DNA of 64,000 nt from Squalus acanthias (Eukaryota): contig CM059432.1 of assembly GCA_030390025.1 (NCBI GenBank), positions 39,000,001 to 39,064,000 of the forward strand, in the 5' to 3' direction. Position 1 is the first letter of the stretch; the number at the start of each line of letters is the position of its first letter. A model generated the notes under the pieces. The model was not told the DNA's origin and did no database searches. It saw nothing but the letters and a program-made list of their open reading frames with translations. A program made the translations under genes and the position numbers. Positions 1 through 49,408 of the stretch are shown here, one piece after another.

Positions 1-252
1 CCGAAGTTCCTGCGGGGGCAAACAAGAACGGCAGACACGGTACGTGATATCGCGCGCGATCCTTACCCCCGCGGCAAGCCTCTGAATCGAATTTCTAGGC
101 CGCTAATTGGGTCATGGGTTCCCACATGCTGGAACTCAATTGCCCAATTAGGTGAAAATTGCATCAATCTCCCACATCCAATTGCAGTCGGGTGGATAAC
201 ACGAAAAGTGGATAACACGACCCCAACCCGCCCCAGTATCAAAATACAGCCC
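1..252 (-). mobile_element. End of a MITE of the same family as 6914-7691
   Basis: About 95-252 is the reverse complement of about 6914-7070; ends in AAAATACAGCCC. Confidence 0.7.
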
Positions 253-255
253 TTT

Positions 256-985: not shown

Positions 986-2630
986 TTTGTGTTCTCCTCA
1001 CAGCTTACTGTCCCACCTAGCTTTGTATTGTCAGCAAACTTGGATACATTACACTCAGTCCCTTCATCTAGGTCATTAATATATATTGTAAATAGCTGAG
1101 GCCCCAACACTGATCCTTGCGGCACCCCACTAGTTACAGCCTGCCAACCTGAAAAAGACCCGTTTATCCCTACTCTCTGTTTTCTGTCCATTAGCCAATC
1201 CTCTATCCATGCTACTATACTACCCCCAACCCCATGAGCCCTTATCTTGTGTAATAACCTTTTATGTGGCACCTTATCAAATGCCTTTTGGAAATCCAAA
1301 TATATTACATCCACTGGTTCCCCTTTATCTACCCTGCTATTTACATCCTCAAAAAACTCTAATAAATTTGTCAAACAAAATTTCCCTTTCATAAAACCAT
1401 GTTGACTCTGCCTAATCATGTTATGATTTTCTAAGTGCCCTGATACCACTTCCTTAACAATGGATTCCAGCATTTTCCCGATGACTGATGTCAGGCTAAC
1501 TGGCCTGTAGTTCCCTGTTTTCTCTCTCCCTCCTTTCTTGAATAGCAGTGTTACATTTGCTACCTTCCAATCCGCTGGGACCGTTCTAGAATCTAGGGAA
1601 TTTTGGAAGATAAAAACCAATGCATTCACTATTTCTGCAGCCACCTCTTTTAGAACCCTAGGATGTAAGCCATCAGGTCCAGGGGATTTGTCGGCTTTTA
1701 GTCCCATTAGTTTCTCGAGTACTTTTTCTCTACTTATATTAATTCTTCTCTTCTTACTTCTTAAGCAGTCCCTCGGAACCGAGGATGACTTGCTTCCACA
1801 TTAAAAATGAGTTCTCAGGTGACTGATGAGTCCAATGCGGGACCTACAGTCTCTGTCACAGGTGGGGCAGACGCTGGTTGAAGGGGCGGGTGGGTGGGGT
1901 GCTTGGGTTGACGTACGCTCCTTCCGCTGCTTGCACTTGGCTTCCGCTTGCTCCCGGCGAAGAGACTCGAGGTATTCGGTGCCTTCCCGGATGCTTCTCC
2001 TCCACTTTGTGCGGTCTTGGGCCAGGGATTACCAGGTGTTGGTGGGGATGTTGCACTTTTTCAAGGAGGCTTTGAGGGTGTCCTTGAAGCTTTTCCTCTG
2101 CCCACCTGGGGCTCTCTTGCCACGTCGGAGCTCCGAGTAGAGCGCTTGTTTTGGGAGTCTCGTATCGGGCATGCGGACGATGTGACCCGTCCATCGGAGC
2201 TGATCGAGCGTGGTCAAAGCTTCGATGCTGGGGATGTTGGCCTGAGCGAGAATACTGACATTGGTGCGCCTATCCTGCCAATGGATTTGCAGGATCTTGC
2301 GGAGGCAGCGTTGGTGGTATCTCTCCAGTGCTTTGAGGTGCCTGCTGTACATGGTCCATGTCTCTGAGGCATACAGGAGAGCGGGTATTTCTACTGCTCT
2401 GTAGACCATGAGCTTGGTGCCGGGTTTGAGGTCCTGGTCTTCAAACACTCTCTTCCTCAGGTGACCGAAGGCTGCACTGGCACACTGAAGGCAGTGTTGG
2501 ACTTCATCATCGACGTCTGCCCTTGTTGACAGTAGGCTCCCGAGGTATATTAATTACGTTAAGTTCCTCACACTCATTAGACCCTTGGTTCCCCACCATT
2601 TTTGGTATGGTTTTTGCGTCTTCTACTGGC
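986..2630 (-). mobile_element. CR1 LINE ORF2 fragment (RT), interrupted by an RTE insertion
   Basis: ORF 880-1707: [47 protein letters not shown]. Confidence 0.92.
1745..2545 (-). mobile_element. 5'-truncated RTE-clade LINE (BovB/Expander-like)
   Basis: ORF 2029-2448 LLYASETW...LRWTGHIVRMPDTRLPKQALYSEL..GKR..GGQRK; 10-bp TSD TATATTAATT (1735-1744, 2546-2555); short (AAG)-rich tail. Confidence 0.88.
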
Positions 2631-2934
2631 CTCACATTCAAATCAGGCCCTGCCATTAAAGTTGGCAGGGCCTGTGGGAAACCCGGTCTCCCATGTTTCC
2701 CGCTTGCCTCGGAAGCCCCCTGCCCCCAACCCGCCTACCTGGGGAAAATTCCGGGCCTAGGTGTATTTCAAGTATAAGATGAAATTTAGCAACATCTTAG
2801 AAAGTTGGTTGATGAACAGGAAACAAAGTGCTCGGATAAATCAGTGTTGCTCAGACTGGAGAAGAGTTGGCAGTTATGTATCTCAGGAGTCATTGCTGGG
2901 TTGAATTTTGTTCTCTGTATATATAGATGATTGC

Positions 2935-3715
2935 CCTACTCCCTTCCAACTACACTTCCTTCTGCATTCACTTCTGGAAAAATCTTGCTCCCAAGTACTT
3001 ACAATTGCACTTTCAAGCTGTCAGCATCCTAAGCTTTGGCCTTCCATTCACCACAAACTTCTACAGCTGTTAATCTGCTCAACCATTTCCTCACGTCTAC
3101 CTTTTATGCCCCAGTAAAACATTTACTCTCTCCCATCCTGGTCATTCCCCTTGGTAGGGCCCCATTTTTGCTCCATCAAGTCCAAGGGACACAGAGTTGA
3201 GCATATCTAGCACACAACTGGTTTAGTGATCCATTATCAGATCTGACTGAACCACATCAAGTGCTACTGGGCCTTAGTCTCCTCTACTAAAGCTGTCCAC
3301 TACTCCATGATCAGCTGGAGAACAAAGATAACCTCCAGCTAATTTTCTCCACTACCGACCCTCTTGCAACTTTGGTGTCCTATTTGACCCCGAACTGAGC
3401 TTCTGACCTTAAATCCTCTTCATCAATAAGACTGCCTACTTCCACCTCTGTAATCTTGCCCTCCTCTGCCCCTGCCTCAGCCCATCTGCTGCTGAAACCC
3501 TCAGCCATTCCTTTACCACCTCGAGACTCAAGTATTGAAATGCTCTCCTGGCCCTCCTCCCGTCCTCCATGCTGTATAAACTTCAGCTCATTTAAAACTC
3601 TGCTGTTTGTATCCTATCTCAAACTAATTCCCACTCACCCATCACTTCTGTCCTTACTGACTTACATTGGCTCCCAGTCCCCCAATGCCTCTAATTTAAA
3701 ATTATTTTCCCCATG
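2935..3715 (+). mobile_element. Degenerate L2-like LINE fragment
   Basis: C/T-rich; ctgctgaaaccctc...ctcgagactc...tacattggctccc resembles the L2 RT C-terminus. Confidence 0.55.
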
Positions 3716-3812: not shown

Positions 3813-6165
3813 GTGTTGTGTAATGAGGAAGGACTAATCAGCAATCTTGTGGTACGAGGCCCCCTGGGGAAGAGTGACCATAGTATGGTGGAGTTCTACA
3901 TTAGGATGGAGAAGGAAACAGTTAAGTCAGAGACCATGGTCCAGAACTTAAATAAGGGCAACTTTGATGGTATGAGGCGTGAATTGGCGAGGTTAAATTG
4001 GCAAGCGATATTTAAGGGGCTATCAGTGGAAGGGCAATGGCAGACATTTAGAGATCGCATGGATGAACTACAACAATTGTACATCCCGGTCTAGCGTAAA
4101 AATAAAAAAGGGAAGGTGGCTCAACCATGGCTAACAAGGGAAATCAGGGATAGTATTAAAACCAAGGAAGTTGCATACAAATTGGCCAGAAGTAGCAGCA
4201 AACCCGGGGACTGGGAGAACTTCAAAACTCAGCAAAGGAGGACGAAGGGTTTGATTAGGGCAGGGAAAATAAAATATGAAAGGAAGCTTGCAGAGAACAT
4301 TAAAATGGACTGCAAAAGCTTCTATAAATATGTAAAAAGAAAGAGGTTAGTAAAAACAAACGTAGGTCCTCTGCAGTCGGAAACAGGGCAAGTCGTAATG
4401 GGGAACAAGGAAATGTCAGATCAATTGAACAAGTACTTTGGTTCGGTGTTTACTGTGGAGGACACACACAACCTGCCGGAAATAAAAGGGGTCAGAGGAT
4501 CTGGTAAGAGGGAGGAGCTGAGGGAAATCCTTATTAGTCGGGAAAAGGTATTGGGGAAATTGATGGGACTGAAGGCTGAAAAATCCCCGGGGCCTGATGG
4601 TCTGCATCCCAGAGTACTTAAGGAGGTGGCCTTGGAAATAGTGGATGCATTGACGATCATTTTCCAACATTCCTTAGACTCTGGATCAGTTCCGATGGAG
4701 TGGAGGGTGGCCAATGTAACCCCTCTTTTTAAAAAAGGAGGGAGGGAGAAAGCAGGGAATTATAGACCGGTCAGCCTGACATCGGTCGTGGGTAAAATGA
4801 TGGAAGCAATTATTAAAGATGTCATAACAGACCATTTGGAAAGTGGCGACATGATAGGTCCAAGTCAGCATGGATTTGTGAAAGGGAAATCATGCTTGAC
4901 AAATCTTCTGGAATTTTTTGAGGATGTTTCCAATAGGGTGGACAGGGGGGAAACAGTAGATGTGGTGTATTTGGACTTTCAGAAGGCCTTCGACAAGGTC
5001 CCACACAAGAGATTGGTGAGCAAAGTTAAAGCACATGGGATTGGGGGTAATGTGTTGACGTGGATTGAGAACTGGTTGGCACACAGGAAACAAAGAGTAG
5101 GAGTAAATGGGTACTTTTCAGAATGGCAGGCAGTGACCAGCGGGGTACCGCAGGGTTCGGTGCTGGGACCCCAGCTGTTTACATTATATATTAATGATTT
5201 GGACGAAGGGATTAAATGTAATATCTCCAAATTTGCGGATGACACTAAATTGGGAGGCAGTGTGAACAATGAGGAGGATGCTAGGAGGCTACAGAGTGAC
5301 TTGGACAGGTTGGGTGAATGGGCAAATGTATGGCAGATGAAGTACAATGTGGATAAATGTGAGGTTATCCACTTTGGTGGTAAAAATAGAGAGGCGGACT
5401 ATTACCTGAATGGTGGCAGATTAGGGAAAGGGGAGGTGCAACGAGACCTGGGCGTCATGGTACATCAGTCACTGAAGGTGGGAATGCAAGTGCAGCAGGC
5501 AGTCAAGAAAGCAAACGGAATGATGGCCTTCATAGTAAGGGGATTTGAGTACAGGAGTAGGGAGGTGATGCTGCAGTTGTACAGGGCCTTGGTGAGGCCA
5601 CACCTGGAGTATTGTGCGCAGTTTTGGTCTCCTAACTTAAGGAAGGACATTCTTGCTATTGAGGGAGTGCAGCGAAGGTTCACTAGATTGATTCCTGGGA
5701 TGGCCGGACTGACATATCAAGAAAGATTGGGTCAACTGAACTTGTATCCTCTGGAGTTCAGAAGAATGAGGGGGGATCTTATAGAGACATTTAAAATCCT
5801 GACTGGTTTAGACAAATTAGATGCGGGCAGAATGTTCCCAATGTTAGGGAAAACTAGAACCAGGGGTCACAGTCTAAGGATTAAGGGGAAGCCATTTAAG
5901 ACTGAGCTGAGGAGGAACTTCTTCACCCAGAGAGTGGTGAATCTATGGAATTCTCTTCCACAGAAGGTTGTTGAGGCCAGTTCGCTAAATATATTCAAAA
6001 GGGAGTTAGATATAACACTCACAACTAGGGGGATCAAGGGGTATGGCGAGAAAGCAGGAATGGGGTACTGAGGTAGCATGTTCAGCCATGAACGCATTGA
6101 ATGGCGGTGCAGGCTCGAAGGACCGAATGGTCTACTCCTGTACCTATTTTCTATGTTTCTATGTG
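3813..6165 (+). mobile_element. CR1 LINE, 5'-truncated, with a long open ORF2 (4116-6071, 651 aa) covering the whole RT
   Basis: PLGKSDH endonuclease end, one in-frame stop at 4092-4094, complete RT motifs (FADDTK), C-terminus NFFTQRVVNLWNSLP, 3' UTR and (TTCTATGT) tail. Confidence 0.95.
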
Positions 6166-6184
6166 TGGGGGTTGCAGAGGGGTC

Positions 6185-6590
6185 CGAATTTTCTTGGTGC
6201 TCAGGATCCCAAGAATTCGTAATCCGGCTCTGCTCCTGTTTAAATCCCTTCATAGTTTGCCCCTCCCGATCTCTGTAACCTCCACCCACCCTACAACCTT
6301 CCACAGAACTTTTTGTTCCTCCGACTCTGGCCTCTTGTTCATCCTCTTCCCTTTGCCCCAGCATTGGTAGCCCTGCCTTCAACCATATAGCCCCACCCTC
6401 TAAAATTCTCTGTTTCTCTATCTCTCTCTTCCTTGTTGACCATCAATATCTTTGACAAAGCTTTTAGTCACCCCTTCTAATATCTACTTATTTGGCTCAG
6501 CATCTATTTTTGTCTGGTTTTGCCTCTGTAAAGTGTCTTGGGACATTTTTCTACATTAACAGCACTACATCAATGCAAGTTGTTGTTGTT
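6185..6590 (+). mobile_element. L2-like LINE 3' end
   Basis: Ends tgtaaagtgtcttgggacatt...aatgcaagttgttgttg, typical of L2-type tails. Confidence 0.55.
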
Positions 6591-6599
6591 CTTATTGAT

Positions 6600-7191
6600 T
6601 TGGATTTGGATGTAAGCAACACAATCTTGAAATTTGCTGACAAGACAATAGTGAGGAGGACTGTTAAAGATTTTAAAAAGACATAGGCCAGCTGAATGGG
6701 CAGAGAGGTGGCAGATACAACTTAATATGGATAAGTGTGAGGTAATACATTTTGAGAGAAAAGAAACAAGGGATAGGAGTGTACACAAATTGGAAAAACA
6801 CTGATGGGTGTGGATGAACTGAGAGAGAGACCTAAAGGTTCAAATACATATGAAAGCGTGAGTGCAGGTAGATGAAGTCATAAAAACGGTCAATTTTTAT
6901 AAATAGAGATACAGGGCTGGATTTTGTCTTGGGGTCGGGTTGGGGTCGTGTTACCCGCATTTCGTGTTGCCCCCCCGACTCCAGATTAATGTGGATGAAT
7001 GATGCAATTTTCACTTAATTGGGCAATTGAGTTCCAGCATGTGGGAATCCATGAACCAATTAATGGTTTCAGTCTGAAAGTCACCTCTGATGATATCATC
7101 ATTGCAGGGACCATCATTGCAGAGACTGCCTGGTCTCAGAGATTGCCTGGCCTTTGCTGTGAGAGGGACCTGGATGTAAAATGAGCAGCAT

Positions 7192-35967: not shown

Positions 35968-37374
35968 ACAATTTCTAAATTTGCAGATGACACCAAATTT
36001 GGGGGGCGGGTTCATCAATACTGAGGAGAACAGTAACAAATTACAAGAAGACATTAATAAACATGCAGAATGGACATATAATTTCAAATGATTTTCAAAA
36101 CAGATTACTGTGAGGTATTACATTTTGGGAAGAAAAATAAGGATATCATATATTACTTGGAAAATAAGAATCTAAGGGGTAAAAATTCACTTGGTTGCGC
36201 CTCCCGTTAGCACCTTAAGAGGGCGCTAATGGGGCGTTAAGCCGCTAACGCCCGGGCGCAGCGCTGTTTGCGCCGCTCGAGAACTTAACTTGAGATTGTG
36301 CGGCGGCGCTAAAACTTACCGCTGCGACCACCTGCGCGCGCAGATTGTGACGTCATTCCATGGTGCAACGCCCTTGGGGCGCCCCGGAGCGGAAATTGAG
36401 TGGCGCCCCCTGCCTTACCGCCTGGCGCTTCCAACGACCGGAAGACTGGAACGTTATCAATCGGTGTGGGGCTGGGGGGGGCGCTATTTAAAGGGGGCCT
36501 CTTCCTGTCTTTTTCTGTGGTCGACATTTATGCACCACTCGTTCTGAGAGAGAGAGAGAGATTCGGAGAGAGAGAGAGAGAGACTTCTACATTGACTCAA
36601 CGCTTTGTGAGGTAGTTTGGCCTAGTTCATCCTAACTTTGTTGCTACTTTAGTTGCTGTACCTCATTACTTTTCTGGCAAAGAGAATATGGGGGCTGCAA
36701 TGATTGGGGGCGTCGTCCTGCTCCAGCTGAATCGGAGGATAGTGAGACGCAGACAGAGAGTGGCAATGATGGCCAGACGGAGGAGGGCCATCAGGCGCAT
36801 GTACAGGAGAGCTTACCCTCCCAGGGTATATCGTGAACAGCTCTCCTACATCCATATGTCCGAGGAGCTGTGTTTGCGAAGGCTGCGATTCAGCAAGGAG
36901 GTGGTCACTGAGCTCTGCCACCTGCTGCAGCCAGATCTGCAGCCTCAGCTGAGGTCCAGGACGTCTCTGTCGGTGGCAGTGAAGGTCACAGTGGCTTTGA
37001 ACTTCTACGCCACTGGCTCATTCCAAGCTGCTGTTGGGGACCTCGCCAATATCTCCCAGTTTGCGGTGCATCGCTGCATCCGGCAGGTCACCAATGCCCT
37101 CTTCAGAAGGAGACGAGACTTCATCTCTTTCCCTATGACCCCAGACAAGCAGCGTGACCGTGCTATGGGCTTTGCGAGGGTAGCGGGCTTCCCCATGGTG
37201 CAGGGCGCCATTGACTGCACGCATGTGGCTTTGCGTGCTCCGCGAGAGAATGCAGAGGAATTCAGGAACAGAAAGGGGTTCCATTCCTTGAATGTGCAGT
37301 TGGTCTGTGACCACAGACAGGTGATTCTCGCTGTCAATGCCCACTATCCGGGCAGCTGCCACGATGCTTTCATC

Positions 37375-39021
37375 TGTAAGGGATTTGACCGTGCGTGTCT
37401 CGCAGCCTGTGAGATTCACGCGGCTCTGTGCAGCCTGTATGTCAGTGCGGGTCTAGGCCTTGTTGCCTGTTCTGGTCTCCAGCCAGTCTGGGAGCACTAG
37501 ACACACCTGTGAGTGGTTCGAATCACTCGCCCTTACGGTTCTAGACACTGGACTTAGATGCGAGAGCAGTAATGGAGATGAAACTCATGTAGACTCGGTT
37601 GAATGGTACGAAATGGAAAATCTTTATTGCATGATATTTAAGATTATGAAATACATGTCATAAGCACAGATTAATGACAGTACAATCTTACAAGCAGTTA
37701 TATAGCTAATCCTAGGGAAACGAGGAACGAACGACACACCGTAAATAGGGGCACACATTACAAGTATCCTTAATACTTAAACCCTCCCCTATCAATATCT
37801 GTCCTAGCTAGATTCGTAGGATTTCGAGACTCATGCTCACCACTCGTGATAACTCGGAGAAATTCCGAATAGCTGATCGGATGTTTTTCACCGCAGCACC
37901 CACGTGTCGATCAGGAGATCTCCTGGTCCCACTTGTTTACTTGCTTCTGCTCCGGCTAGCAGGCTGGACCGTCTGCTGTGATGAAGATCTGTGTTGGTTG
38001 GTTTAACTGGCACAGTCCGAATGGGTTTCACAGACCAGTCAATATTATCTTGGAGGATCTTCCAAGGTCTATTCTTGCAAGTTCAAAGAAGTCTCCCTAG
38101 CAAGGAAAACTTGGCTATTCGACCTACAGGCGCGGTCGGGATCTACTGACCGTGGCGATGAGTATGGTCTTCCTCTCTTCTCATCTCATCTCATCTCATC
38201 TCGGGCCTTTGGTTCCGATGCCAGTTACCAACATAGGTCTTCGTTACGCGACACGAGGTAGATCCTGAACGGATCAGAAAGTTCAACAGCCTTTTTCAAA
38301 GAGGCACCAGGCAAGCAGGCACAAGACTACGAGTCAAAACACAGGAGCAGCCACGAGGTTACGAGTCGATCGGATAAGAGAATAAGAGAAAGATGGACGG
38401 TTGGAGCTTGTAATTATAGTACAAAATCTTCCGTTTCCCGCCCAACCTTAATGTCCTTTCTTTTGTTAGGGTTTGGCGCTCAAATGTCTTGTATGGGTGA
38501 TCTCCGTTCTTAATGGGTTTCGGGGCTACTCGTAAATGTCTGAGTACCTGTTAATATTTCTCCCATTGTTAAATCGGTCGGTGTTCTCCCTGGAGGGGTT
38601 TTGGGGCTTCCAAGTGTTTTGAAAAACTACCCGCTAACGGCTCTCTCATCGTAGAGTCGTTGGGATTTTACATATTAATGTCTTTGGATGGGCCCTTGAT
38701 TACTTGGTACAATAGCTTTCATTCGTACCTTGGGAGACCGATTTCAGTATTTATGTGTATACTGTAAACCCATAATGTCTCGTGTATTATCTTCAATGTG
38801 CTGAATCTTAATCGATCTTGCACAAATGTTTATTGGAACGCCATCTTGTCTGCCTGTCGGAAAGTCTAGAATGTTCTGTCACGAGGTGCGGCGGCCATTT
38901 TACAGGCTGCTTGTGTCCACTTTGAGAAACCTGACAGCATTCTGCTGAAATAAAAGCTGTTTGAACGAAACTCTGTGTTTTCTCCTTATTAATAAAATCG
39001 CGATATATTGCGAATTCTACA
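37375..39021 (-). repeat. 3' LTR (1647 bp)
   Basis: Near-identical to 45078-46724 (5 transitions seen by eye); minus-strand AATAAA at 37623-37628; preceded on the minus strand by a purine-rich tract. Confidence 0.97.
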
Positions 39022-39033
39022 GTCCCTCCTGTT
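39022..39033 (-). promoter_or_regulatory. Polypurine tract (short, imperfect)
   Basis: Minus strand AACAGGAGGGAC directly abuts the TGTA start of the 3' LTR. Confidence 0.65.
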
Positions 39034-39471
39034 GATGCGAATAACTCCGCTTATCGTATCAAAAATCATAGTGGTGAGCAATATTATCTCGATTTCTCTC
39101 CGAATCCAGCAAATTAATCCCATAACTTTAACCTAAATAGGGTCTCTGTGTCGTCCTTATTTCCCAAGAAAATTACATTTTATATCACCGTGGGCCTTTA
39201 TTTGCCCTTAAACTTACACCACTTGTTTTCCTTCCCGGCGTAACCAGGCCGATGCCTCTCGTATCACCTGTATATTCATCTTTTATTCAGGGAAAGGAAA
39301 AACAAAACCCAAAACCAAACAATCATTTTTAACTATAACACCATCACCAAAAATAATCAACACCAACTCTTAACATGTCGAGTTCCAAACGTATTTACAG
39401 TCTTTGAAAATCATGATCGAGTACAAACTTCCGCGGCGCACGTGGCGAGCGGGAATGACGCCATTTTCCGA

Positions 39472-41823
39472 TTACACGGTGCTTTCATCGTGCACGCGCA
39501 CGTAACGTTCTCGCCACTCTCCCGTGTTTTCATGCTTGGTGAGGCGTTTGTCTCTTTTACAATGTACGACCAATAGGTACACTACAATAAACACTTGACA
39601 TACGACTAAAATGTGGGAGGCTATTCTGATCCATGAAGGCACTTCAATATTGGTGAACAGATTCCACCACGGTGGAACTACTATATCCAGAATGTCTGTT
39701 CCTATTTCGACAGTTTTCTGTTCTAATGTGTAAAAATGTTTCTGTGACACCGCGACGGCTTTTAAAAGCTTGGTGAGGTGTTCAGGGAGAGGGGGAATGA
39801 GGTATCCGAAATGCGCGAAAAATCGCTGCAAGTCGGTGAAATTCTCTTTTACTGTGAGATGAACAGTGGATGGTTCAGGGATTGGGATAATTCGCTGTTG
39901 TGCTACTTGAACTTCCGCCCTGGGTTTGAAACAGAAACTGCTGTCACTCACCGGACACCGGCTACGGTTTCCATGCTGGTAGTGTTGCGCTGCAGTGGTA
40001 ACACAATATGTTCCACCCCCGATGTATGCTACCTGCGGAGGCACATGATCTTGTGCCATTGCCTCCATGGTGCAATTCATGGACTTGGCGCCAGTCGTTC
40101 TGAACCCGCACTGTGGTGTTAAAAAGGCATTCAAGTGCTGGGGGCACAGTATTATGTGTGCTCCCCTGCCACGACAACCAGAGAGATCTGTACCTGTCAT
40201 CATTTGCTCCCAGCGGATGACGTAAGGTGGAACCGCTGCATAACGAATGTGGGCTCCCCCCTGAATGACACCAATGTTCTCTACCCGATACACCGGGGCG
40301 GGCTTTGCTGTGTCGCCCAAAACCGGCATGCGTAAAACTATACCCATAATGGTATGGTTTGATCGTCCGCAGTCCACGGGGACTGGGTATGCTTCTGAAG
40401 CTAGCCTGAGCTGGCACGGGCTCAATGCGTTCTGAAAAGGGTGGAGCGCCCGCAGGTGTTTGTTACTTATCCAGGACAGGACCAAACCTTGTTTTAAATC
40501 CTCCAAATTACTGCGGCCCTCGCCCAGTAACCACGCCCCGTAAAGCACGCACACCTCGTTCTGCGCAGCTTGATCGGATGTATTCCGATCTTCCCTAATC
40601 AGGGCATTTACCGTCTTTGCATGTTTCTCCAACTCTGCTATAATTTCCTTTAAATGGAGAGTCATGGCTTGGTCCTCGTGTAGACCAGACCCTACCACTT
40701 TATTCTCATCTGTTAGAATGTCTTTTAATTGTGTCTTTAAACCATTAATCTGGGTCTGCAGCTCCACACTGTCTAGAGCGTTGACCACAGATGTACCCGT
40801 GTTAAAAGCAGTGAACGCGTCGTTCACTACACCCCTTCTTTGCCTCCCTACTTGATCCAAAACTTCCTGTGGTGCGGTGTACAAACTTGTTTTATCAATT
40901 TCCGCGAAATCGAATTCGTAAAATTGTCTGAACATCTTGGTCAACAGGACCTGATACAACTGTTGCGTCTTTTTGGGGCACCACTCTGGTAACCGTACCT
41001 CAGTGAGATTTAAAATCACCGAGGCCACCGCGTAATGTACCCCCTGAAATAGTATCTGGTCAGTGGGGACCAGTACCAAACCATTCCCGGGTCCCTTACT
41101 AGTTTTAGGGCACCCTTCCTCTTCAGCTAGAACCACCGGAATCGTGGGCGGGGCTTTGCGTGGGCGCGTAATGAGCTCAGTGGCATTTACCGGGATCGAA
41201 GAGTATGGGGCTCCGCACCCCCTGGTGCTCGCATCCCACCTCATCCCCTGTCCGTTATCCTGCCACTGATTAATGAAAAATATGGATATGCCTTTGGGGC
41301 AAGGGTATTTTGACCCCCACATGCATACATAAATTCCCTCGTCCGGTTCCCACCATTTGTCCCAACAGACTTTCACTTGTCCGTTTGTCCCCGTAATTGT
41401 CCGATGGGTATTATTATCCAGTCGCTCCCACTCGACCGAAGAGTTCCTCATAGTTTTGCTCAGCTTTCGCAGCCACCACCATCGGCTCAATGGGACATTC
41501 CCACTACAAGTCAAACAAATCCGTTTGCCGACGGTGACGCTGATCCTGGGTGCGATGATCCTTACTTTGGGGCACATTAAAGAAGTCTCTTGGTAGGCAA
41601 ACCCCGATGTGCTGGAATACTCCGTCGAGTTCGTTCCCAGCCATCCTGGCCACCTTCCCTTGTGGAAATAGGTGCTGGTCTCCTCTGCCTCCCGTCTTCC
41701 GGTCCCATCCACCGCGATGGGGGCCGTGTCCCCGGAGCATCCAAACACCACGACATCCTTGGTGCGGCCTCGATAGGCCAATCCACATCCGATTGCCGCG
41801 AGCAATACTAGAATTCGTTCCAT
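39472..41823 (-). CDS. env: Envelope glycoprotein, class I fusion (F-like), about 783 aa, with putative Ig-like domain
   Basis: Signal peptide MERILVLLAAIGCGLA; furin site RQRR (40834-40845) followed by fusion-peptide-like GVVNDAFTAFNTGTSVVNAL and a heptad repeat; Cys-rich ectodomain; TM ASHILVVCQVFIVVYLLVV; short tail. ORF is open from 41982, but a splice acceptor lies just upstream of ATG 41823. Confidence 0.9.
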   Translation of the reverse strand: MERILVLLAAIGCGLAYRGRTKDVVVFGCSGDTAPIAVDGTGRREAEETSTYFHKGRWPGWLGTNSTEYSSTSGFAYQETSLMCPKVRIIAPRISVTVGKRICLTCSGNVPLSRWWWLRKLSKTMRNSSVEWERLDNNTHRTITGTNGQVKVCWDKWWEPDEGIYVCMWGSKYPCPKGISIFFINQWQDNGQGMRWDASTRGCGAPYSSIPVNATELITRPRKAPPTIPVVLAEEEGCPKTSKGPGNGLVLVPTDQILFQGVHYAVASVILNLTEVRLPEWCPKKTQQLYQVLLTKMFRQFYEFDFAEIDKTSLYTAPQEVLDQVGRQRRGVVNDAFTAFNTGTSVVNALDSVELQTQINGLKTQLKDILTDENKVVGSGLHEDQAMTLHLKEIIAELEKHAKTVNALIREDRNTSDQAAQNEVCVLYGAWLLGEGRSNLEDLKQGLVLSWISNKHLRALHPFQNALSPCQLRLASEAYPVPVDCGRSNHTIMGIVLRMPVLGDTAKPAPVYRVENIGVIQGGAHIRYAAVPPYVIRWEQMMTGTDLSGCRGRGAHIILCPQHLNAFLTPQCGFRTTGAKSMNCTMEAMAQDHVPPQVAYIGGGTYCVTTAAQHYQHGNRSRCPVSDSSFCFKPRAEVQVAQQRIIPIPEPSTVHLTVKENFTDLQRFFAHFGYLIPPLPEHLTKLLKAVAVSQKHFYTLEQKTVEIGTDILDIVVPPWWNLFTNIEVPSWIRIASHILVVCQVFIVVYLLVVHCKRDKRLTKHENTGEWRERYVRVHDESTV

Positions 41824-42139
41824 CCTTCCTTGGTTCCTGTGATCAGATAGAATGAGGTAGCCAGCCTCGCAAGAGTCTCTGGCTTTTGTGAAGGGTGAGC
41901 GGGTCCCCTGACCTCGCCTCACGTAAACTTCAATGTTCGCTGAATAAACTTTAACTAAACCTATCTCTAAAGCTCCCATCATTTTGCCATTTTTTGTTAA
42001 AATTAAACTACAAACTTAACCTTATTTAATACTGTGAACTTCTACTTGACCTTGAACTATAAACTTAGAAACTTAAACTAATGAACTTAAACTTAAAACT
42101 TATTACTGTACAGCGCCGCCCGTTCTCAGGGCGGCCCCT

Positions 42140-43264
42140 TTAAATTCTGAGAAAACTGCTGCGAGCTCTTACCGACTTTGGGAGGGCTCTGACCTTTTCC
42201 TCTGATCTGCCGCAGCCTGTTTCTGCGCTGACCCCTCCCTCTGATCTGCCGCAGCCTGTTGCTGCTGCGATGGGGCCGGGCTGTACCTGGGCTGCCTTAA
42301 CCTTGAGTCTGCGCCTTGGGACAGACTGGGGCAATACCCATATCTTCTTGGGCTGGGGTTCTCTACCTGACCTACGGGGAGTTGTCATGGGCGGGGGTTC
42401 CGTGACTGACGGACCGGGTTCCGAGACTTCCATCGGGACGACCTGTGGTTCCACCACAGTCGCTGGCTCCGCCTCCGCTGACTCCGCCTCCCTAACCTCG
42501 GGGCTCGCAGTTTGTGGCTCCGCCCTGCTCGGCCCAGCAGGCGGCCCTTCACTCGCGATCTCTGCCTCCCCCGAGGGCGGGACGTTCAAAGCGGGCGGCT
42601 CTGTCTCTGGGGTCCTCACCGTCACCCCCTGTGCTCCCACAGCGGCTGGCTCCGCCTCCCCTAGCTCCTCCCTCCTGTCTTCGGGACCTGCAGCTTGTGT
42701 GTCCACCCTGTGTGGATCTCTATCTGCAGCCCGTATCCTCCCTATACCTAAAATGGGAACGTTCCTTAGGTTCCCCAAAAACCACTCGCCTTCCTCACCA
42801 TCCTCATCTGACTCCCATCCCCACAAAAATGCTTCGTGAACTTCCAGGATGTCTCCTCCCCTGATGCAAGCTGCTTTGCCTGCCTGTGTGCCTTGTGGTC
42901 CTACCTGGGGCTGCGCGTCCCCACTCGCGGGGTTTACCCCTGTGGTTTTCCCTTGCGCACCTGGCTTGTACAGTTTGCACTGGTTTACATCCTCATACTC
43001 CCGGCTTTTGGCTACCCTGTAGGCTGCTTTTATCTCACTAAGCTGCGCTTCTAGCCTGAGCACGTCTAACTTTCCCATTGATCGGGCGTTCTCCTCCCGC
43101 AGGGCCTGCTCTCTAAGCTGCCCTTCCAGCCCATCTATTTTCCCTATTAAGCGGGCGTTCTCCTCCCGCAAGGCCTGCTCTTTTAACCTGGCCTCCTCAC
43201 CGCAGACCCCCTCCTGTGCGTGTCTTTTAAAAGGACACAGGTAGGCAGGCTGCGTGGGCTCTAG
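42140..43264 (-). CDS. ORF2, in frame with gag and occupying the pol position; coiled coil plus acidic/Pro-rich low-complexity protein of unknown function
   Basis: Open from the codon after TGA 43265-43267 to the stop at 42140; same frame as gag; duplicated EQALREENAR and TGCGRSE units; no protease, RT, RNase H or integrase motifs visible. Confidence 0.7.
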   Translation of the reverse strand, partial: LEPTQPAYLCPFKRHAQEGVCGEEARLKEQALREENARLIGKIDGLEGQLREQALREENARSMGKLDVLRLEAQLSEIKAAYRVAKSREYEDVNQCKLYKPGAQGKTTGVNPASGDAQPQVGPQGTQAGKAACIRGGDILEVHEAFLWGWESDEDGEEGEWFLGNLRNVPILGIGRIRAADRDPHRVDTQAAGPEDRREELGEAEPAAVGAQGVTVRTPETEPPALNVPPSGEAEIASEGPPAGPSRAEPQTASPEVREAESAEAEPATVVEPQVVPMEVSEPGPSVTEPPPMTTPRRSGREPQPKKIWVLPQSVPRRRLKVKAAQVQPGPIAAATGCGRSEGGVSAETGCGRSEEKVRALPKSVRARSSFLRI

Positions 43265-43459
43265 TCATTGGGTACTATTAGACGGTCCTGCGGCACCTAC
43301 GGGGCCGGTTGCAACCGCCACCTTTCCATGTGCACTCAATAAACTGCGCATGGCTCCCAACACTACTTCGAGGTCGTCGGGAGGGGTGGGTGCACCAGCT
43401 TCCCTAGCAGGGACAGGCGTCTGGGCTCGGGCTGCGGGATTTTTATCCTTGGAATCCTT

Positions 43460-45073
43460 TCAAGGGTTCCTGCAATGCTTGCGCCAGTGCCCTGTCTTCC
43501 CACACCCGTAACAAGCATTACTTGCCTGTGGGGCGCGATTACCCTCCTGATGCCACTCCCTTTGATACGGGGCTGCGGGTCGTACCTCATGTACTTTTCC
43601 CTTAAGGGGACGTGTTCCCATACCCCTTATATTGCGATATCCTAACGTGAGTCGATTCAAGACCGACTCTTCCGTAATGTTGGGGTCATTGGGATCAAAC
43701 CATGCCTTTGCCTGCTCTCTGACGGCTGGTAAACTGTTGGCTATTATGCACCTAAGCCAATGAGCTAAACCGGCGCCTTCCACATCTTCGCGCTCTGGCG
43801 CACCTAGACAGCTGCGCTGATATACTGGCCACAGCCTATCGGCAAAAACCTTCGGGGGTTCTCCCTCCATCTGCACTGTCTGTCCCACTCTAGCAAACGG
43901 ACCTTCATCGTCCGCCCCCAACACTTCCAGGACCTCATTCTTTAATGCCTCATAAGTCTTGGTTCCCCTCTTGCTCTCGCCCGAGAGACACTGAAGGATT
44001 GTACTGCCTAACGAAAACAACAGCATTTTTGCTGTTTCCCCATCATCGCAGCCGTTAATGGCTGCGGTTTGCTCAACTTCTCTGAAATGTACGGAAGGGT
44101 CGTCTGCCTCGGTTAGCTTCCGTACGTGATTTATCATAACTCTCAGCTGATGTGAACTGTGAGGCAATACAAGCTGTCCGAGGAGATCCCCTGATCCCTC
44201 CCCACCGTTTCTGTTTGGGCCCCTTTTTATACCCGTTACTGGATACAACGGTCCCTTTTCCACCTCTTTCTCAATGGGCTCTTTCGTTTCTTCCATTGCT
44301 TCCTCCCTTACCCAGGTTTCCGAATAGCTGGGTGGCGCGGAGGGCGCAGTGGCTACTACTTCCTCTGCTTTACTTGGTGGGGATTTATTAAACTCCTCAC
44401 TTACTAGCGGCTGGTGTGCTGACGGACTGATAAGGCACACCATGCCGTGCGCTTTGTTCACGGCCTTTTTGAGGTGCTCTATCTCCCTTTTGCAAGCGCT
44501 ATGATCAGCTCCCTGAAACTTATCCTCAAGGGCCAACTTATATGCCGCCCTAACCCCCGTTAAGCTCTCTTCCTGAGTTCTTATCTGGGCAGCTTGGCGG
44601 GCACATCGTTCCTTTAACCTGCTCTCATTTAACTTTGCCTCAGTGACCTGGCACTCGAGGTAATCTATCCTTGTTTTATGGTGACTGGAGATTTCCTGGC
44701 GTTCTTGGTGCAACGCACTTAAATTCCTAATGAGCATTTCCCCTCCAGAAACCTTCTCATCCATTTCTCCCTCTAAATGACTGATTCGAGCTGTTAGCGC
44801 TGTAATGGTCTGGTTTGAAATCTGGACCTGCCTTTTGTAACACATTAGCCAGACTGCTTTCTCAAGTGTCTTTTTATGTTCTTTACTATCTGTCCACCTT
44901 TCGGCTGCCTCTAGCGGGCTTTTATCCGCTAACAATTCACTTATCCATTTCTTAGTTAGATTAACCTTTCCAAACACATAATCTGCTATCTTTTCCTGCA
45001 TAACATTTCGTACAGTCATTCCAAAGTCTAACACACTACCCTCTCGCTGCCAGTGTCCTGCCGCGGTCGCCAT
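43460..45073 (-). CDS. gag: Gag polyprotein (537 aa to first TGA; frame stays open a further 64 codons to TGA at 43265-43267)
   Basis: N-terminal coiled-coil region, PSAPPSY late-domain motif, Ty3/gypsy-like capsid segment (DDPSVHFREVEQTAAINGCDD...), C-terminal CX2CX4HX4C knuckle CYGCGKTGHWRKHC; starts at the PBS. Confidence 0.9.
   Translation of the reverse strand: MATAAGHWQREGSVLDFGMTVRNVMQEKIADYVFGKVNLTKKWISELLADKSPLEAAERWTDSKEHKKTLEKAVWLMCYKRQVQISNQTITALTARISHLEGEMDEKVSGGEMLIRNLSALHQERQEISSHHKTRIDYLECQVTEAKLNESRLKERCARQAAQIRTQEESLTGVRAAYKLALEDKFQGADHSACKREIEHLKKAVNKAHGMVCLISPSAHQPLVSEEFNKSPPSKAEEVVATAPSAPPSYSETWVREEAMEETKEPIEKEVEKGPLYPVTGIKRGPNRNGGEGSGDLLGQLVLPHSSHQLRVMINHVRKLTEADDPSVHFREVEQTAAINGCDDGETAKMLLFSLGSTILQCLSGESKRGTKTYEALKNEVLEVLGADDEGPFARVGQTVQMEGEPPKVFADRLWPVYQRSCLGAPEREDVEGAGLAHWLRCIIANSLPAVREQAKAWFDPNDPNITEESVLNRLTLGYRNIRGMGTRPLKGKVHEVRPAAPYQREWHQEGNRAPQASNACYGCGKTGHWRKHCRNP
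45055..45072 (-). promoter_or_regulatory. Primer-binding site, tRNA-Arg type
   Basis: Minus strand TGGCGACCGCGGCAGGAC, 5 nt after the 5' LTR; complementary to the 3' end GTCCTGCCGCGGTCG-CCA that I recall for vertebrate tRNA-Arg(TCG). Confidence 0.85.
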
Positions 45074-45077
45074 TTTC

Positions 45078-46724
45078 TGTAAGGGATTTGACCGTGCGTG
45101 TCTCGCAGCCTGTGAGATTCACGCGGCTCTGTGCAGCCTGTATGTCAGTGCAGGTTTAGGCCTTGTTGCCTGTTCTGGTCTCCAGCCAGTCTGGGAGCAC
45201 TGGACACACCTGTGAGTGGTTCGAATCACTCGCCCTTACGGTTCTAGACACTGGACTTAGATGCGAGAGCAGTAATGGAGATGAAACTCATGTAGACTCG
45301 GTTGAATGGTACGAAATGGAAAATCTTTATTGCATGATATTTAAGATTATGAAATACATGTCATAAGCACAGATTAATGACAGTACAATCTTACAAGCAG
45401 TTATATAGCTAATCCTAGGGAAACGAGGAACGAACGACACACTGTAAATAGGGGCACACATTACAAGTATCCTTAATACTTAAACCCTCCCCTATCAATA
45501 TCTGTCCTAGCTAGATTCGTAGGATTTCGAGACTCATGCTCACCACTCGTGATAACTCGGAGAAATTCCGAATAGCTGATCGGATGTTTTTCACCGCAGC
45601 ACCCACGTGTCGATCAGGAGATCTCCTGGTCCCACTTGTTTACTTGCTTCTGCTCCGGCTAGCAGGCTGGACCGTCTGCTGTGATGAAGATCTGTGTTGG
45701 TTGGTTTAACTGGCACAGTCCGAATGGGTTTCACAGACCAGTCAATATTATCTTGGAGGATCTTCCAAGGTCTATTCTTGCAAGTTCAAAGAAGTCTCCC
45801 TAGCAAGGAAAACTTGGCTATTCGACCTACAGGCGCGGTCGGGATCTACTGACCGTGGCGATGAGTATGGTCTTCCTCTCTTCTCATCTCATCTCATCTC
45901 ATCTCGGGCCTTTGGTTCCGATGCCAGTTACCAACATAGGTCTTCGTTACGCGACACGAGGTAGATCCTGAACGGATCAGAAAGTTCAACAGCCTTTTTC
46001 AAAGAGGCACCAGGCAAGCAGGCACAAGACTACGAGTCAAAACACAGGAGCAGCCACGAGGTTACGAGTCGATCGGATAAGAGAATAAGAGAAAGATGGA
46101 CGGTTGGAGCTTGTAATTATAGTACAAAATCTTCCGTTTCCCGCCCAACCTTAATGTCCTTTCTTTTGTTAGGGTTTGGCGCTCAAATGCCTTGTATGGG
46201 TGATCTCCGTTCTTAATGGGTTTCGGGGCTACTCGTAAATGTCTGAGTACCTGTTAATATTTCTCCCATTGTTAAATCGGTCGGTGTTCTCCCTGGAGGG
46301 GTTTTGGGGCTTCCAAGTGTTTTGAAAAACTACCCGCTAACGGCTCTCTCATCGTAGAGTCGTTGGGATTTTACATATTAATGTCTTTGGATGGGCCCTT
46401 GATTACTTGGTACAATAGCTTTCATTCGTACCTTGGGAGACCGATTTCAGTATTTATGTGTATACTGTAAACCCATAATGTCTCGTGTATTATCTTCAAT
46501 GTGCTGAATCTTAATCGATCTTGCACAAATGTTTATTGGAACGCCATCTTGTCTGCCTGTCGGAAAGTCTAGAATGTTCTGTCACGAGGTGCGGCGGCCA
46601 TTTTACAGGCTGCTTGTGTCCACTTTGAGAAACCTGACAGCATTCTGCTGAAATAAAAGCTGTTTGAACGAAACTCTGTGTTTTCTCCTTATTAATAAAA
46701 TCGCGATATATTGCGAATTCTACA
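45078..46724 (-). repeat. 5' LTR (1647 bp)
   Basis: Direct repeat of 37375-39021; on + begins tgtaagggatt and ends gaattctaca; followed on the minus strand by the PBS. Confidence 0.97.
46114..46146 (-). promoter_or_regulatory. Candidate LTR promoter (GC box plus TATA-like)
   Basis: Minus strand GGGCGG (46141-46146) about 20 nt upstream of CTATAATTA (46114-46122). Confidence 0.45.
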
Positions 46725-47496
46725 CATCCTGCGCCAGACTACTGTGGCAGAACTTTTCGAGGCACCGCATCAGCCAGTTGGTTGGCTTCTGGGGGACAAG
46801 GGGTACGCATTGAGCACCTGGCTGATGACACCGCTCCGTACGCCAAACACCCCTGCTGAGCTGCGGTACCAGGAAAGCCATCAAGCAACCAGGAACATTA
46901 TTGAGCGCACAATCGGCGTGCTGAAACAACGGTTCCGCTGTCTGGACCATTCCGGAGGAGCCCTGCAGTACTCGCCTGAGCAAGTTTCGAACTTCGTAGT
47001 CGTGTGCTGCATGTTGCACAACATGGCAATCCTCAGGACCCAGCCAATGCCACCAGGCCTTGTAGCACCACCAGAGGAGGAGGAGGAAGAGGAGGAACAG
47101 GACGAGGACGATGATCATCAGCAGCACCAAGGCAGGAGGGCGGCCCACAATGGTCAAACTGCAAGGGCCGTCCGTCAACGACTAATAGCAAGCCGCTTCT
47201 AGGGCCCCTGCCATTGCTACAAACACTAATCAACCCAGCACGCAACCCCTAAGCCGGCCAAGGCACCAATAATTCCAACCACCAGCCATGTATATTTTGA
47301 ATACAGAAACTTATTTATTTTACAAACTCTGTGTGTGTCAATTCCTCATGACAAACTCATAGAAATAAACACAAAAAAACAGTCAATAACATAACTGGTT
47401 CTCACAACCTGGAGATAATGTCCAAAACACTAAACAAAAGTTGGACCATGAACCTCGGCCTTTAATAAAAAAATGACCAGCATTTTGGCACACCTC

Positions 47497-49408
47497 CTAC
47501 TTTTTGCCCTTCGAGGGTGATCTCCTTCCCTTGCGCACTTCCCCCCTTCTAACCCTACTGCTCCTCCGTAATGGGACCTCAGTGGCTGCAGCAAGGCTGG
47601 TGGAAGGCTGCTGCTCGTCAGACCCTGACACTGCAGATGCCCCTGAAGGACGGCCTCGACCACTTCTGGGCCTGGAGGGCCCGGCTGCAGACTGCACCAA
47701 CTCTGCATGGGCGGCAGCAGTCTGTCCTACAGGCGGTGGCAAGTGCAGTGGAGAAGTGACAGTGTTGGCAGCAGGAATGCTGTCATCGTGAGAGAGGACA
47801 GCAACTCCCTGCTCGCCCGACACACTGGCACTCCCACGGGGCAGCACTTCAGCATCCGGAGCAATTTGCCGGAGAACAGATTGCTGGCCTGCTGCGGCGC
47901 GGTGACAGCCCCGGGGACATGTGCACGAACCATCGAGGATGGCAGCAGTCAGTGCTCGCGTGGCCTCAATCTGAGTCTGCATGAGAGCAGTCTCAGATGG
48001 GTTCCTGGCAGCCAGTGACTGAATTGCAGCACTAAGCTTTAGTGTGGCATCCGCCTGTGCTACAGCGAAGTGCTCCACACTCCTTGCCAGTGCCTCAATG
48101 CATTCGGGCACCCTTCCCACTGCACCCATGAGCTCAGTGTGCATGCCCACCGCCTGGCTGTTCATTTCTGCAATCAGCCGCTCCTCCTCTGCGTCCATTG
48201 CAGTAGGAGTGTCTGGCATACTCTCCCTCTGGGGAGAAGGCTCCCGTTCTTCCCTCCCCCCCCCATGGCGTTGCTGCAGCCCGCTGGGTCCTGGAGCTTC
48301 ACCATCATCAGCCCCTTCCCCCCTGCTCCCCTCCGGGGAAGGCGTGTTCCCAGTGTGGGCATGGGCTTCCTCGGGAGAGGGTGGCACTGATGCTCCGGCT
48401 TCCTCTTCCTCCTCAGCTGCAGCATCACTCCCAGTGGCAGCTTCAGGGCCCGTCTCCTCAGCTGGTGAATCACCATCTGAAAGCAGGGAGGTACAAGAGT
48501 GGCTTTAGCGTGAGGACAGGGTGGCAGTAAGGGAGGAATAAGTGCAGCGAGTTAGCAAGTTGGATTGAAAGTGTCAAAGGCTGGTATTGTGAGGGACAAA
48601 AAGGTGATGACCTTACCATTGCTGTCCACAACGGGGTCGGCGTCCCCAGTGGCGACGGGACCGATCACCCGGCTTGCCACAATCCTGTGGACGCGCTCCT
48701 CCAGATCGCTGAGGGGTTGCAGCTGAAGCCGCCCTCCACCCGTCCGTTGCTGCTGTCTCCGATTATGAGCCAGCTTAGCCTGCAAGAAAAAGGACAGCAT
48801 CTGAGTAAATATACAGCCATGGTCTTGCCTGATGTGCCTCCCATAGGTGAATAGCCCTTACAATATGCAGCCATGGTCTTGCCTGATGTGCCTCCCATAG
48901 GTGAATAGCCCTTACAATATGCAGCCATGGTCTTGCCTGATGTGCCTCCCATAGGTGAATAGCCCTTACAATATGCAGCCATGGTCTTGCCTGATGTGCC
49001 TCCCATAGGTGAATAGCCCTTACTGTATGCAAAGTGTGGAATGTGTGTGTGTGTTTGATGAAAGGGCCATAGGTGTTGCATGAGTGTTGTGCATTGGGGT
49101 TTTAAGACCCTCTGGCCATAGAGTGAGGTTGAGATGGAGGGATGGAGAGGTATTGAGAAAAAGCCACTCACCCTGACGACCCGAGTGAGGTCGTTGAACT
49201 TTTTGCGGCACTGAACATGGGTCCTGGGCACCATGCTCCTGGAGGAGACGCTCTGAGCCACCTCCCTCCACACTCTTCTGAACTCGCGTGGCAAAGGCCT
49301 CCTGCCACTCTCCGGGAACAGCATGCATCGTCTGCGCTCCACTGCGTCAACCAGAGCATCCAAGGCCCGCTCGGTGAAGCGATGAGCGCGTTCTCTCACC
49401 CTCTCCAT
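47497..49408 (-). CDS. Harbinger Myb/SANT-like DNA-binding protein; exons 49408-49172, 48779-48617, 48476-47497; 459 aa
   Basis: Exon 1 RFTERALDALV...WREVA...QCRKKFNDL; canonical donors GTGAGT and GTAAGG and pyrimidine-rich CAG acceptors; phases 0 and 1 splice into one open frame ending ...SKGKK*. Confidence 0.85.
48814..49029. repeat. 54-bp tandem repeat x4 in intron 1 of the Myb/SANT gene
   Basis: Unit cagccatggtcttgcctgatgtgcctcccataggtgaatagcccttacaatatg starts at 48814, 48868, 48922 and 48976. Confidence 0.95.

Follow-up and report, generated by a model that had tools for sequence, protein, structure and literature searches.

How does a provirus without a pol gene come to sit in a vertebrate genome with two nearly identical long terminal repeats (LTRs) and an uninterrupted envelope gene? 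The question is raised by a 64,000-nucleotide (nt) stretch of Squalus acanthias DNA (GenBank assembly GCA_030390025.1, contig CM059432.1, positions 39,000,001 to 39,064,000), referred to here as the window. A direct-repeat search and BLAST of both ends placed a provirus of 9,350 bp at 37375-46724 on the minus strand, and the list of open reading frames (ORFs) fills its interior with three minus-strand frames, namely gag (537 amino acids, aa), ORF2 (312 aa) and env (836 aa). All coordinates refer to the whole window, and element positions are counted along the minus strand from 46724. An earlier note on the window had described a young element with an LTR-gag-ORF2-env-LTR layout, belonging to a helper-dependent, satellite-like lineage and perhaps to an undescribed family. 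Our analysis indicates, with a probability that we put at roughly 85%, that the element belongs to a pol-deleted, non-autonomous sub-lineage within an endogenous retrovirus (ERV) family of high copy number.

Pol-less copies and their pol-bearing partner

We searched the genome (3.7 Gb in 3,882 contigs) with the LTR and obtained 40 scored matches from 3,217 candidates; among the scored matches, several LTR pairs lay 11.1 kb apart, compared with 7.7 kb in the window. Seven loci were fetched from this search, and four of them contain full-length elements. All four align to the window element at element positions 1-3492 and 3737 to the end, and in place of the window element's 244 bp they contain 3,619 bp. 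Sequences flanking the replaced segment are 97.8-99.1% identical in the three full-length copies with long alignments, and a 184-nt piece beside the breakpoint is 94.6% identical in the fourth. The full-length gag gene encodes 602 aa from its ATG and ends in TGA-CTAG, behind which an open pol frame of 1,499 aa continues in the same reading frame as gag. UGA-CUAG is a well-known readthrough-promoting context. Pfam recognized RVT_1 (E 1.9e-34), RT_RNaseH_2 (the "tether"), RNase_H, Integrase_H2C2 and rve in the 1,499-aa Pol, together with weak protease and SH3 rows, and a low-complexity tail of ~280 aa follows these domains. The autonomous form is ~12.7 kb long and is arranged as LTR, primer-binding site (PBS) for tRNA-Arg(TCG), gag, UGA stop, in-frame pol, env, polypurine tract (PPT) and LTR. 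Two of the four full-length copies have all three frames open; of the other two, one is interrupted by a stop in env and the other by a stop in pol. The earlier note had proposed a search for a pol-bearing partner with the same LTR and PBS; such a partner is present, and its intact gag/pol junction has 1,878 matches in the genome. A further locus, on contig 3289, has lost another internal part of pol, so that Pol residue 562 is followed by residue 994, and its gag and env are rearranged. Other deletion forms therefore exist beside the abundant one.

Comparison with the full-length copies also clarified ORF2. Behind the natural gag stop, the window copy continues with a delta-pol frame that starts with the first 11 codons of pol, passes through an 81-codon insert and ends in the C-terminal tail of pol, and ORF2 (43078..42140, 312 aa) is the ATG-initiated part of this frame. 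Thus, the frames of the layout given in the earlier note are all present, but ORF2 is a pol remnant with an insert rather than a new gene. Because the net length change at the replacement is -3,375 nt, a multiple of three, the reading frame is kept. The peptide encoded by the 244-bp insert is coiled-coil-like and contains an internal repeat of ~24 codons (EQALREENAR... twice); the insert has no match elsewhere in the full-length element. BLASTP of the peptide against gag gave a best E of 0.22, Pfam returned a Rab11-FIP3-like coiled coil (E 4.5e-4) whose 20.9 bits fall below the cut-off of 31.9, and no homologue was found among longer proteins. Pfam also found no match to ORF2 at E 0.1 or better. 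When the partner's 1,499-aa Pol was run against the window with tblastn, just its last ~300 residues were matched. Protease (PR), reverse transcriptase (RT), RNase H and integrase (IN) are therefore truly absent from the window copy, as had been claimed from the first reading of its frames. The pol tail itself contains an imperfect 74-nt direct repeat (42454-42527 and 42637-42710; 76% identity, spacing 183), and near its end the copies differ by a 13-codon repeat unit (GCGRSEEGVS...).

The pol-less arrangement is common in the genome. All 40 scored matches to a 431-bp stretch spanning the replacement cover its full length (1-431, 1-430 or 3-431), with identities of 99-100%, and they are spread over many contigs. 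We counted junctions with 32-mer patterns at up to two mismatches, for which reversed-pattern controls gave 0. The left breakpoint has 1,102 matches, dispersed over all large contigs, and the env fusion-peptide region has 2,267. The right breakpoint gave 376 matches at up to two mismatches in a stretch with at least two common polymorphisms; we take 376 as a floor for copies identical at both junctions, and about 1,100 for the left junction. For a systematic sample, we took every 10th row of the left-junction list and fetched the env position of 8 copies. Env lay at the distance expected for the pol-less form, within ~90 bp, in all 8 of these copies. Pol-less loci are flanked by different target-site duplications (TSDs), CATC in the window, TATG around a tandem pair on contig 9 and GACC on contig 3430, and the four full-length copies have GGCT, AGAA, GGTG and CACA. 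The loci of both forms, with their distinct TSDs, represent separate integrase-made insertions. Copies with the same layout and distinct TSDs had been suggested as a check on the element, and the 1,102 breakpoint matches and three pol-less TSDs bear it out. Contigs from two other public sequencing runs bridge the left breakpoint, and one of these runs also shows the full-length continuation, with a loose end at 43233, so both forms exist in other public data sets.

Both forms often occur in head-to-tail arrays that share LTRs (LTR-internal-LTR-internal-LTR), and one such array is found on contig 3289. Left-junction matches on contig 1 are ~7.72 kb apart (143657915/143665638/143673356), and contig 3 carries junction matches at 117795018/117806093/117817116. 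The pol-less array on contig 9 has a single TSD (TATG) around it, and its two units differ by 9 env substitutions. In the pol-less copy on contig 3430, an oppositely oriented solo LTR of the same family is nested in the delta-pol tail (fetched-locus positions 5477-7172) and is flanked by a separate TSD, TGCC; members of the family thus serve as targets for insertions of the same family.

Recombination, age and competing explanations

We compared three to four pol-less copies with three to four full-length copies, region by region. Within this small sample, seven differences are fixed between the forms, six at element positions 3412-3480 and one at 3745, all beside the breakpoints. Env (2,495 nt compared) and the next 454 nt contain no fixed difference. 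When the window is compared with a full-length copy, identity is 93.5-94.7% over the 93-94 nt that adjoin the replacement on each side and ~98.7% elsewhere. Because fixed differences occur within ~80 bp of a breakpoint alone, we conclude that the two forms recombine. The pattern can be read as a replacement that happened once, long ago, with both kinds of genome having recombined since, as co-packaged retroviral RNAs do.

The two LTRs of the window copy differ at 5 of 1,647 nt, with every difference a transition and 0 gaps. This LTR-LTR divergence of 0.30% compares with 0.12-0.31% for pol-less copies and 0.06-0.55% for the four full-length copies. At 2.2e-9 substitutions per site per year, the rate used in PMC7947760, the window insertion would be about 0.7 million years old, and its age would rise if cartilaginous fishes evolve more slowly. 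The env genes of the 8 sampled pol-less copies differ from that of the window by 0.9-9.2% at the nucleotide level. Wide env divergence together with near-identical LTRs indicates that the pol-less lineage is old yet recently active, and the pol-less LTR values agree with the earlier statement that it was integrating recently.

Among the young pol-less copies from the LTR search, env is open in four of four and the delta-pol frame in three of four. Gag is open in two of the three whole pol-less copies, the window copy being the exception, and a fourth copy that is split over two pieces has no stop where it could be aligned. We obtained pooled Nei-Gojobori estimates of the ratio of nonsynonymous to synonymous substitution (dN/dS). 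For env, these were 0.20 in pol-less pairs, 0.16 in full-length pairs and 0.17 in mixed pairs; the corresponding values were 0.27, 0.18 and 0.19 for gag, and 0.65, 0.66 and 0.52 for the pol tail. Differences between copies are far above those between the LTRs of one copy, and therefore most of them arose during replication. The ratios show purifying selection on gag and env within the pool of replicating genomes.

Together, these results indicate that the pol-less form is an internal deletion/substitution derivative of the partner family and not a separate family. In the model that we favor, one ancestral event would have replaced 3,619 bp of pol with a 244-bp in-frame insert, giving rise to the 9.35-kb LTR-gag-[delta-pol]-env-LTR form. 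The pol-less RNA would be transcribed from the 5' LTR and packaged along with full-length genomes. Reverse transcription would start from a tRNA-Arg primer and use the RT and RNase H of the partner, whose integrase would then insert the pol-less DNA and generate the 4-bp target duplications. We infer trans-complementation by the partner's Pol from the missing pol, the recombination with the partner and the recent integrations. Co-packaging with helper genomes is presumed in this model, and the element's own Gag, its Env or a Gag-delta-Pol readthrough product may contribute to its spread. The helper-dependent, satellite-like lineage envisaged in the earlier note is upheld insofar as the element is pol-less, has integrated recently many times and has a partner in the same genome, but it is not separate from the partner's family. 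An undescribed independent family is contradicted by the window element itself, which shares LTR, PBS, gag and env with full-length elements and recombines freely with them.

Several observations weigh against this model. The window copy's gag has a premature stop, and the earlier proposal that the element supplies its own capsid and envelope was an overstated inference for a copy with a truncated gag. In the systematic sample of 8 env genes, one is fully open, one is open from Met54, and stops or frameshifts interrupt the other six. Recombination between the forms makes it impossible to attribute the low dN/dS of pol-less gag and env to selection on the pol-less form as such. The dN/dS comparison suggested at the outset thus returned values of ~0.2 for gag and env, but these describe a shared pool and do not establish that the pol-less form needs its own genes. 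Given the polymorphism of the right-junction stretch, part of the left-junction copies may have a different sequence downstream, and the counts are possibly inflated by tandem arrays and unplaced contigs.

We considered other origins for the pol-less copies. A pol deletion that befell this single provirus after its insertion would be in keeping with full-length copies that have the same LTRs and outnumber the deleted form, but the left breakpoint is found 1,102 times, the 431-bp junction is intact in 40 of 40 matches, three different TSDs flank pol-less loci, and all 8 sampled copies have env at the spacing of the pol-less form. This possibility had been set in advance as the refuting case; the junction, the breakpoint matches and the env distance rule it out, and we give it practically no credence. 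Multiplication by segmental or tandem duplication of DNA, instead of reverse transcription, would account for the tandem LTR-internal-LTR-internal-LTR arrays, for the single TSD around the pol-less array on contig 9 and for the 7.72-kb spacing of junction matches on contig 1. It is nonetheless very improbable, given that matches occur over all large contigs, that separate loci have distinct 4-bp TSDs, and that LTR pairs within a copy (0.1-0.3% divergent) are more alike than the copies are to one another (about 1-9%).

Other explanations concern what the element carries. It could be a pure RNA passenger like ETn or VL30, with a gag and env that go unused and are kept intact-looking by recombination with selected full-length genomes. 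The lack of fixed differences in or after env, the equal dN/dS of the two forms, the broken env in six of eight sampled copies and the truncated gag of the window all fit a passenger. On the other hand, the deletion spares gag and env precisely and in frame (-3,375 nt), and the delta-pol frame is open in three of four young copies. Neither point is decisive, and we hold the passenger explanation to be a tentative possibility against which the odds lean somewhat. In a quite different scenario, the 244-bp insert would be a captured fragment of a host gene, making the element a transducing defective retrovirus comparable to the acutely transforming viruses. An in-frame insert that is unmatched elsewhere in the full-length element and has a sub-threshold Rab11-FIP3-like Pfam match (E 4.5e-4) is what capture might leave, but the peptide has no homologue among longer proteins, its BLASTP comparison with gag reached only E 0.22, and coiled-coil matches are often compositional; capture therefore seems to us quite unlikely. 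We also considered a bolder extension of the favored model, which we think unlikely though less so than capture. Here the pol-less lineage would be a long-lived "satellite retrovirus" that has coexisted with its helper for millions of years, keeping gag and an F-type env for its own use, either in cis or for particle building and targeting. The coiled-coil swap would create a UGA-readthrough Gag-X fusion that biases packaging or assembly, and the family would be an F-envelope, lokiretrovirus-like one that has not yet been reported from cartilaginous fishes and is perhaps still active.

The window copy and its insertion site

The features of the window copy, which we assign to the pol-deleted sub-lineage, are collected in Table 1. 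The cis elements listed in the earlier note (TG...CA LTRs, 4-bp TSD, 18-nt PBS and PPT) are all present in their places.

Table 1. Features of the pol-less provirus and of the host gene that it interrupts, in window coordinates.
Feature	Position	Strand	Basis or remark
Host Harbinger/PIF-type transposase gene (DDE_Tnp_4), split by the provirus	36688-47202	+	halves 36688-37374 and 46729-47202
TSD, left copy, CATC	37371-37374		repeated at 46725-46728; empty site restores host transposase frame
3' LTR, 1,647 nt, TG...CA ends	37375-39021	-	LTR-LTR alignment
Polypurine-like tract AACAGGAGGGAC, 12 nt	39022-39033	-	adjoins 3' LTR
env, 836 aa, uninterrupted	39472-41982	-	ORF list
env, predicted F-like module, aa 298-836	39475-41091	-	Foldseek and VIA-align of AlphaFold2 model
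env, weak immunoglobulin (Ig) V-like stretch, aa 146-230	41293-41547	-	solved-structure sequence search
Delta-pol frame, 374 codons, in frame with gag behind TGA	42140-43264	-	sequence comparison with full-length copies
244-bp insert replacing 3,619 bp of pol	42989-43232	-	alignment to full-length copies
Natural gag stop TGA, then CTAG	43265-43267	-	same context in full-length copies
gag, 537 aa in window copy	43460-45073	-	ends at premature stop 43460-43462
PBS, 18 nt	45055-45072	-	5 nt past 5' LTR
5' LTR, 1,647 nt, TG...CA ends	45078-46724	-	LTR-LTR alignment
TSD, right copy, CATC	46725-46728		matches left copy

The tract AACAGGAGGGAC lies upstream of the 3' LTR in all copies checked, and the PBS is perfectly complementary to the 3' end, with CCA, of a host tRNA-Arg(TCG). 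We fetched places in the genome that contain the PBS complement. The first six had no tRNA gene; among four more, the two in arrays on contig 26 had one, and those on contigs 12 and 14 had none. The contig 26 genes for tRNA-Arg(TCG) form long tandem arrays with a period of 1,623 bp at ~40.46-40.89 Mb, and ARAGORN gives the arrayed genes a length of 92 nt, a size that hints at an intron behind the anticodon. Two nucleotides of the PBS are also part of the first gag ATG (45071-45073), and the gag frame runs on without a stop upstream into the LTR. PBS and gag are therefore not separated by an untranslated leader, and the packaging signal must sit elsewhere. The true gag start may possibly be a downstream Met.

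The premature gag stop at codon 538 lies 64 codons short of the usual family end and is private to the window among the 6 copies compared. The Gag translation contains an N-terminal coiled-coil region, the motifs PSAP and PPSY, and a CX2CX4HX4C zinc knuckle. Pfam gave no match to it at E 0.1 or better. Its language-model look-alikes were Retrotrans_gag/Ty3_capsid/zf-CCHC clusters (0.94-0.95), yet with just 135-157 shared features, and a capsid fold predicted from the single sequence was unusable, with a predicted local distance difference test score (pLDDT) of 35.

Excising the element and one CATC in silico yields a continuous DDE_Tnp_4 frame of 386 aa in the host transposase gene. The restored frame shows that the element boundaries are exact to the base and, because the frame is otherwise open, that the interrupted Harbinger/PIF transposon copy is itself young. 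A neighbouring ORF at 47497-48219 (minus strand, 240 aa) might be the second (Myb-like) gene of this transposon. Just past the transposon, at 48808-49000, there is a tandem repeat with a 54-nt unit and at least three overlapping copies of 99% identity.

The envelope, retroviral kinship and known defective elements

The Env translation has a probable signal peptide after Met54, an RQRR furin-type site at aa 392-395 that is followed by a long helix, and a C-terminal membrane anchor. Apart from a sub-threshold DUF6360 row, Pfam found no match in Env at E 0.1 or better, and PF00523 had no match at this level in Env or in 10 of its relatives. One relative has a sub-threshold Baculo_F match, and another matches V-set at E 0.045. 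A search of the Env sequence against solved structures gave weak Ig V-like rows alone (E 0.14-1, aa 146-230) and no fusion protein, and a profile of 38 relatives gave coiled-coil noise alone. In an exhaustive search of 1.84 billion representatives, we found 48 Env relatives. The named ones belong to sharks, two frogs and a skate, the skate protein being 75% identical over 47% of the query, and one shark relative is named 'Ig-like domain-containing' in UniRef.

Evidence for the fold of Env came from language-model and structural comparisons. Look-alikes of Env aa 396-836 were a Baculo_F cluster (0.94) and a Fusion_gly F0 cluster (0.93). The AlphaFold2 model, built with 38 relatives, has a mean pLDDT of 60 and is confident at residues 290-360 and 470-700; it is not confident over the Ig V-like stretch at aa 146-230. 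When this model was compared with the PDB by Foldseek, the top 50 matches listed were all paramyxovirus or pneumovirus F proteins, the best being human parainfluenza virus 3 (hPIV3) F at E 1.1e-10. VIA-align gave Z scores of 12.7-8.8 over 270-380 aligned residues and paired model residues 298 to ~705-789 with F residues 26 to ~430-493; for post-fusion Langya F, Z was 12.5 with a root-mean-square deviation of 6.1 Å over 337 residues. On the basis of the model, the C-terminal ~540 residues of Env are predicted to be an F-type fusion machine, and the first ~300 residues an added head of uncertain fold. The intact F-type envelope of the earlier note is thus confirmed at the level of an open frame and of the fold seen by Foldseek and VIA-align. 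Like the paramyxovirus and pneumovirus F proteins, Env would be a class I fusion protein with F2-like and F1-like parts split by a furin site, but unlike them it has ~300 extra N-terminal residues with a possible Ig V-like domain. Our comparison of Env with paramyxovirus/pneumovirus F and with foamy-virus Env draws on PMC11468914. Foamy Env was not among the Foldseek and VIA-align matches listed; the two may nonetheless be related.

We next considered the retroviral group to which the family belongs. Against solved structures, Pol scored about equally with Ty3 (237 bits), the RT of xenotropic murine leukemia virus-related virus and murine leukemia virus (XMRV/MLV; 221) and foamy PR-RT (204), and its integrase was closest, among solved integrases, to that of prototype foamy virus (PFV; 118 bits). 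Among named Pol proteins, those of three anurans and the coelacanth (Latimeria) are nearest, with 43-44% identity over RT-RNase H. A quick tree built from the search hits joins the family to the Latimeria and anuran Pol proteins (SH-like approximate likelihood ratio test, SH-aLRT, 99), apart from gamma-like Pol and Ty3/gypsy. Lokiretroviruses have been reported from the coelacanth and anurans (PMC7947760). In the genome table of that paper, an asterisk, which we read as 'found', stands at Xenopus tropicalis, Rana catesbeiana and Latimeria, and none stands at the three cartilaginous-fish genomes looked up, Callorhinchus and two Chiloscyllium (PMC7947760). Lokiretroviruses resemble the family described here in being gag-pol-env elements of lower vertebrates with a tether and RNase H, and in having an Env that is related to the F proteins of Mononegavirales and has a furin-type site, to be compared with the F fold and RQRR of our Env (PMC7947760). 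Loki-Str Env is reported there with a PF00523 sequence match (PMC7947760). In contrast to lokiretroviruses, the Env described here has no PF00523 match at E 0.1 or better, and we saw no smc-like gene. These likenesses make kinship of the family with lokiretroviruses plausible and fall short of proving it.

Defective retroviral genomes that parasitise competent relatives include ETn/MusD, the mouse intracisternal A-particle (IAP) I-delta-1 elements and the bovine ERVK D-type. Such genomes usually lose the ability to encode proteins, and endogenous retroviruses discard env before any other gene. A defective ERV lineage riding on a competent one is therefore of a kind already known. In mouse IAP I-delta-1, an internal in-frame deletion leads to a gag-pol fusion product, and the element is non-autonomous, very active and in need of full-length elements in trans. 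Its deletion is in frame like that of the pol-less form, but the element has no env, and part of gag and pol is removed, whereas nearly all of pol is removed here. The chicken EAV-HP proviruses have an LTR-gag-env-LTR structure without pol; they are related to alpharetroviruses, have a conventional retroviral Env and are present at low copy number. They share the pol-less gag-env layout with the dogfish-genome element of this study but differ from it in the type of Env and in their low copy number.

A close parallel in structure is the ERVK[2-1-LTR] family of cattle. As described in PMC10924933, which also mentions IAP I-delta-1, its defective D-type shares LTRs and flanking gag and env with the competent C-type and has a shorter, unalignable replacement as its central segment. 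The same text reports that linkage between C-type and D-type is confined to the surroundings of the boundaries, with pervasive recombination elsewhere, and that D-type elements are numerous and thought to be trans-complemented, a "parasite of a parasite" (PMC10924933). The pairing of competent and defective forms, the central replacement and the boundary-limited linkage are thus the same as in Squalus acanthias. However, all bovine D-type elements are without intact ORFs and number in the hundreds (PMC10924933), whereas many pol-less copies have complete gag and env frames here and the copy number is ~1,100. The replacement is also in frame here, and both the host and the retroviral clade are unrelated to the bovine ones.

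What is unusual in Squalus acanthias is that the enzymatic core of pol alone is gone, that the replacement is in frame, and that the gag and env frames persist. The pol-less lineage makes up ~1/3 of a family of ~3,000 internal copies with an F-fold envelope, and the host belongs to a group from which the searchable literature describes no such retroviruses. We found neither this family nor this layout in the searchable literature on lokiretroviruses, on pol-deleted ERVs with env or on cartilaginous-fish ERVs. The family also poses a risk for annotation, in that thousands of gag, env and 'ORF2' frames would otherwise be called host genes; relatives in other elasmobranch genomes already go by chimeric names, among them 'Niban 1-like' and 'zinc finger protein ZFP2-like'. 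For the biology of retroviruses, the two forms provide a natural system in which to learn what a defective genome needs in cis, how a helper and its satellite share one recombining gene pool, and how far retroviruses with F-type envelopes extend among vertebrates.

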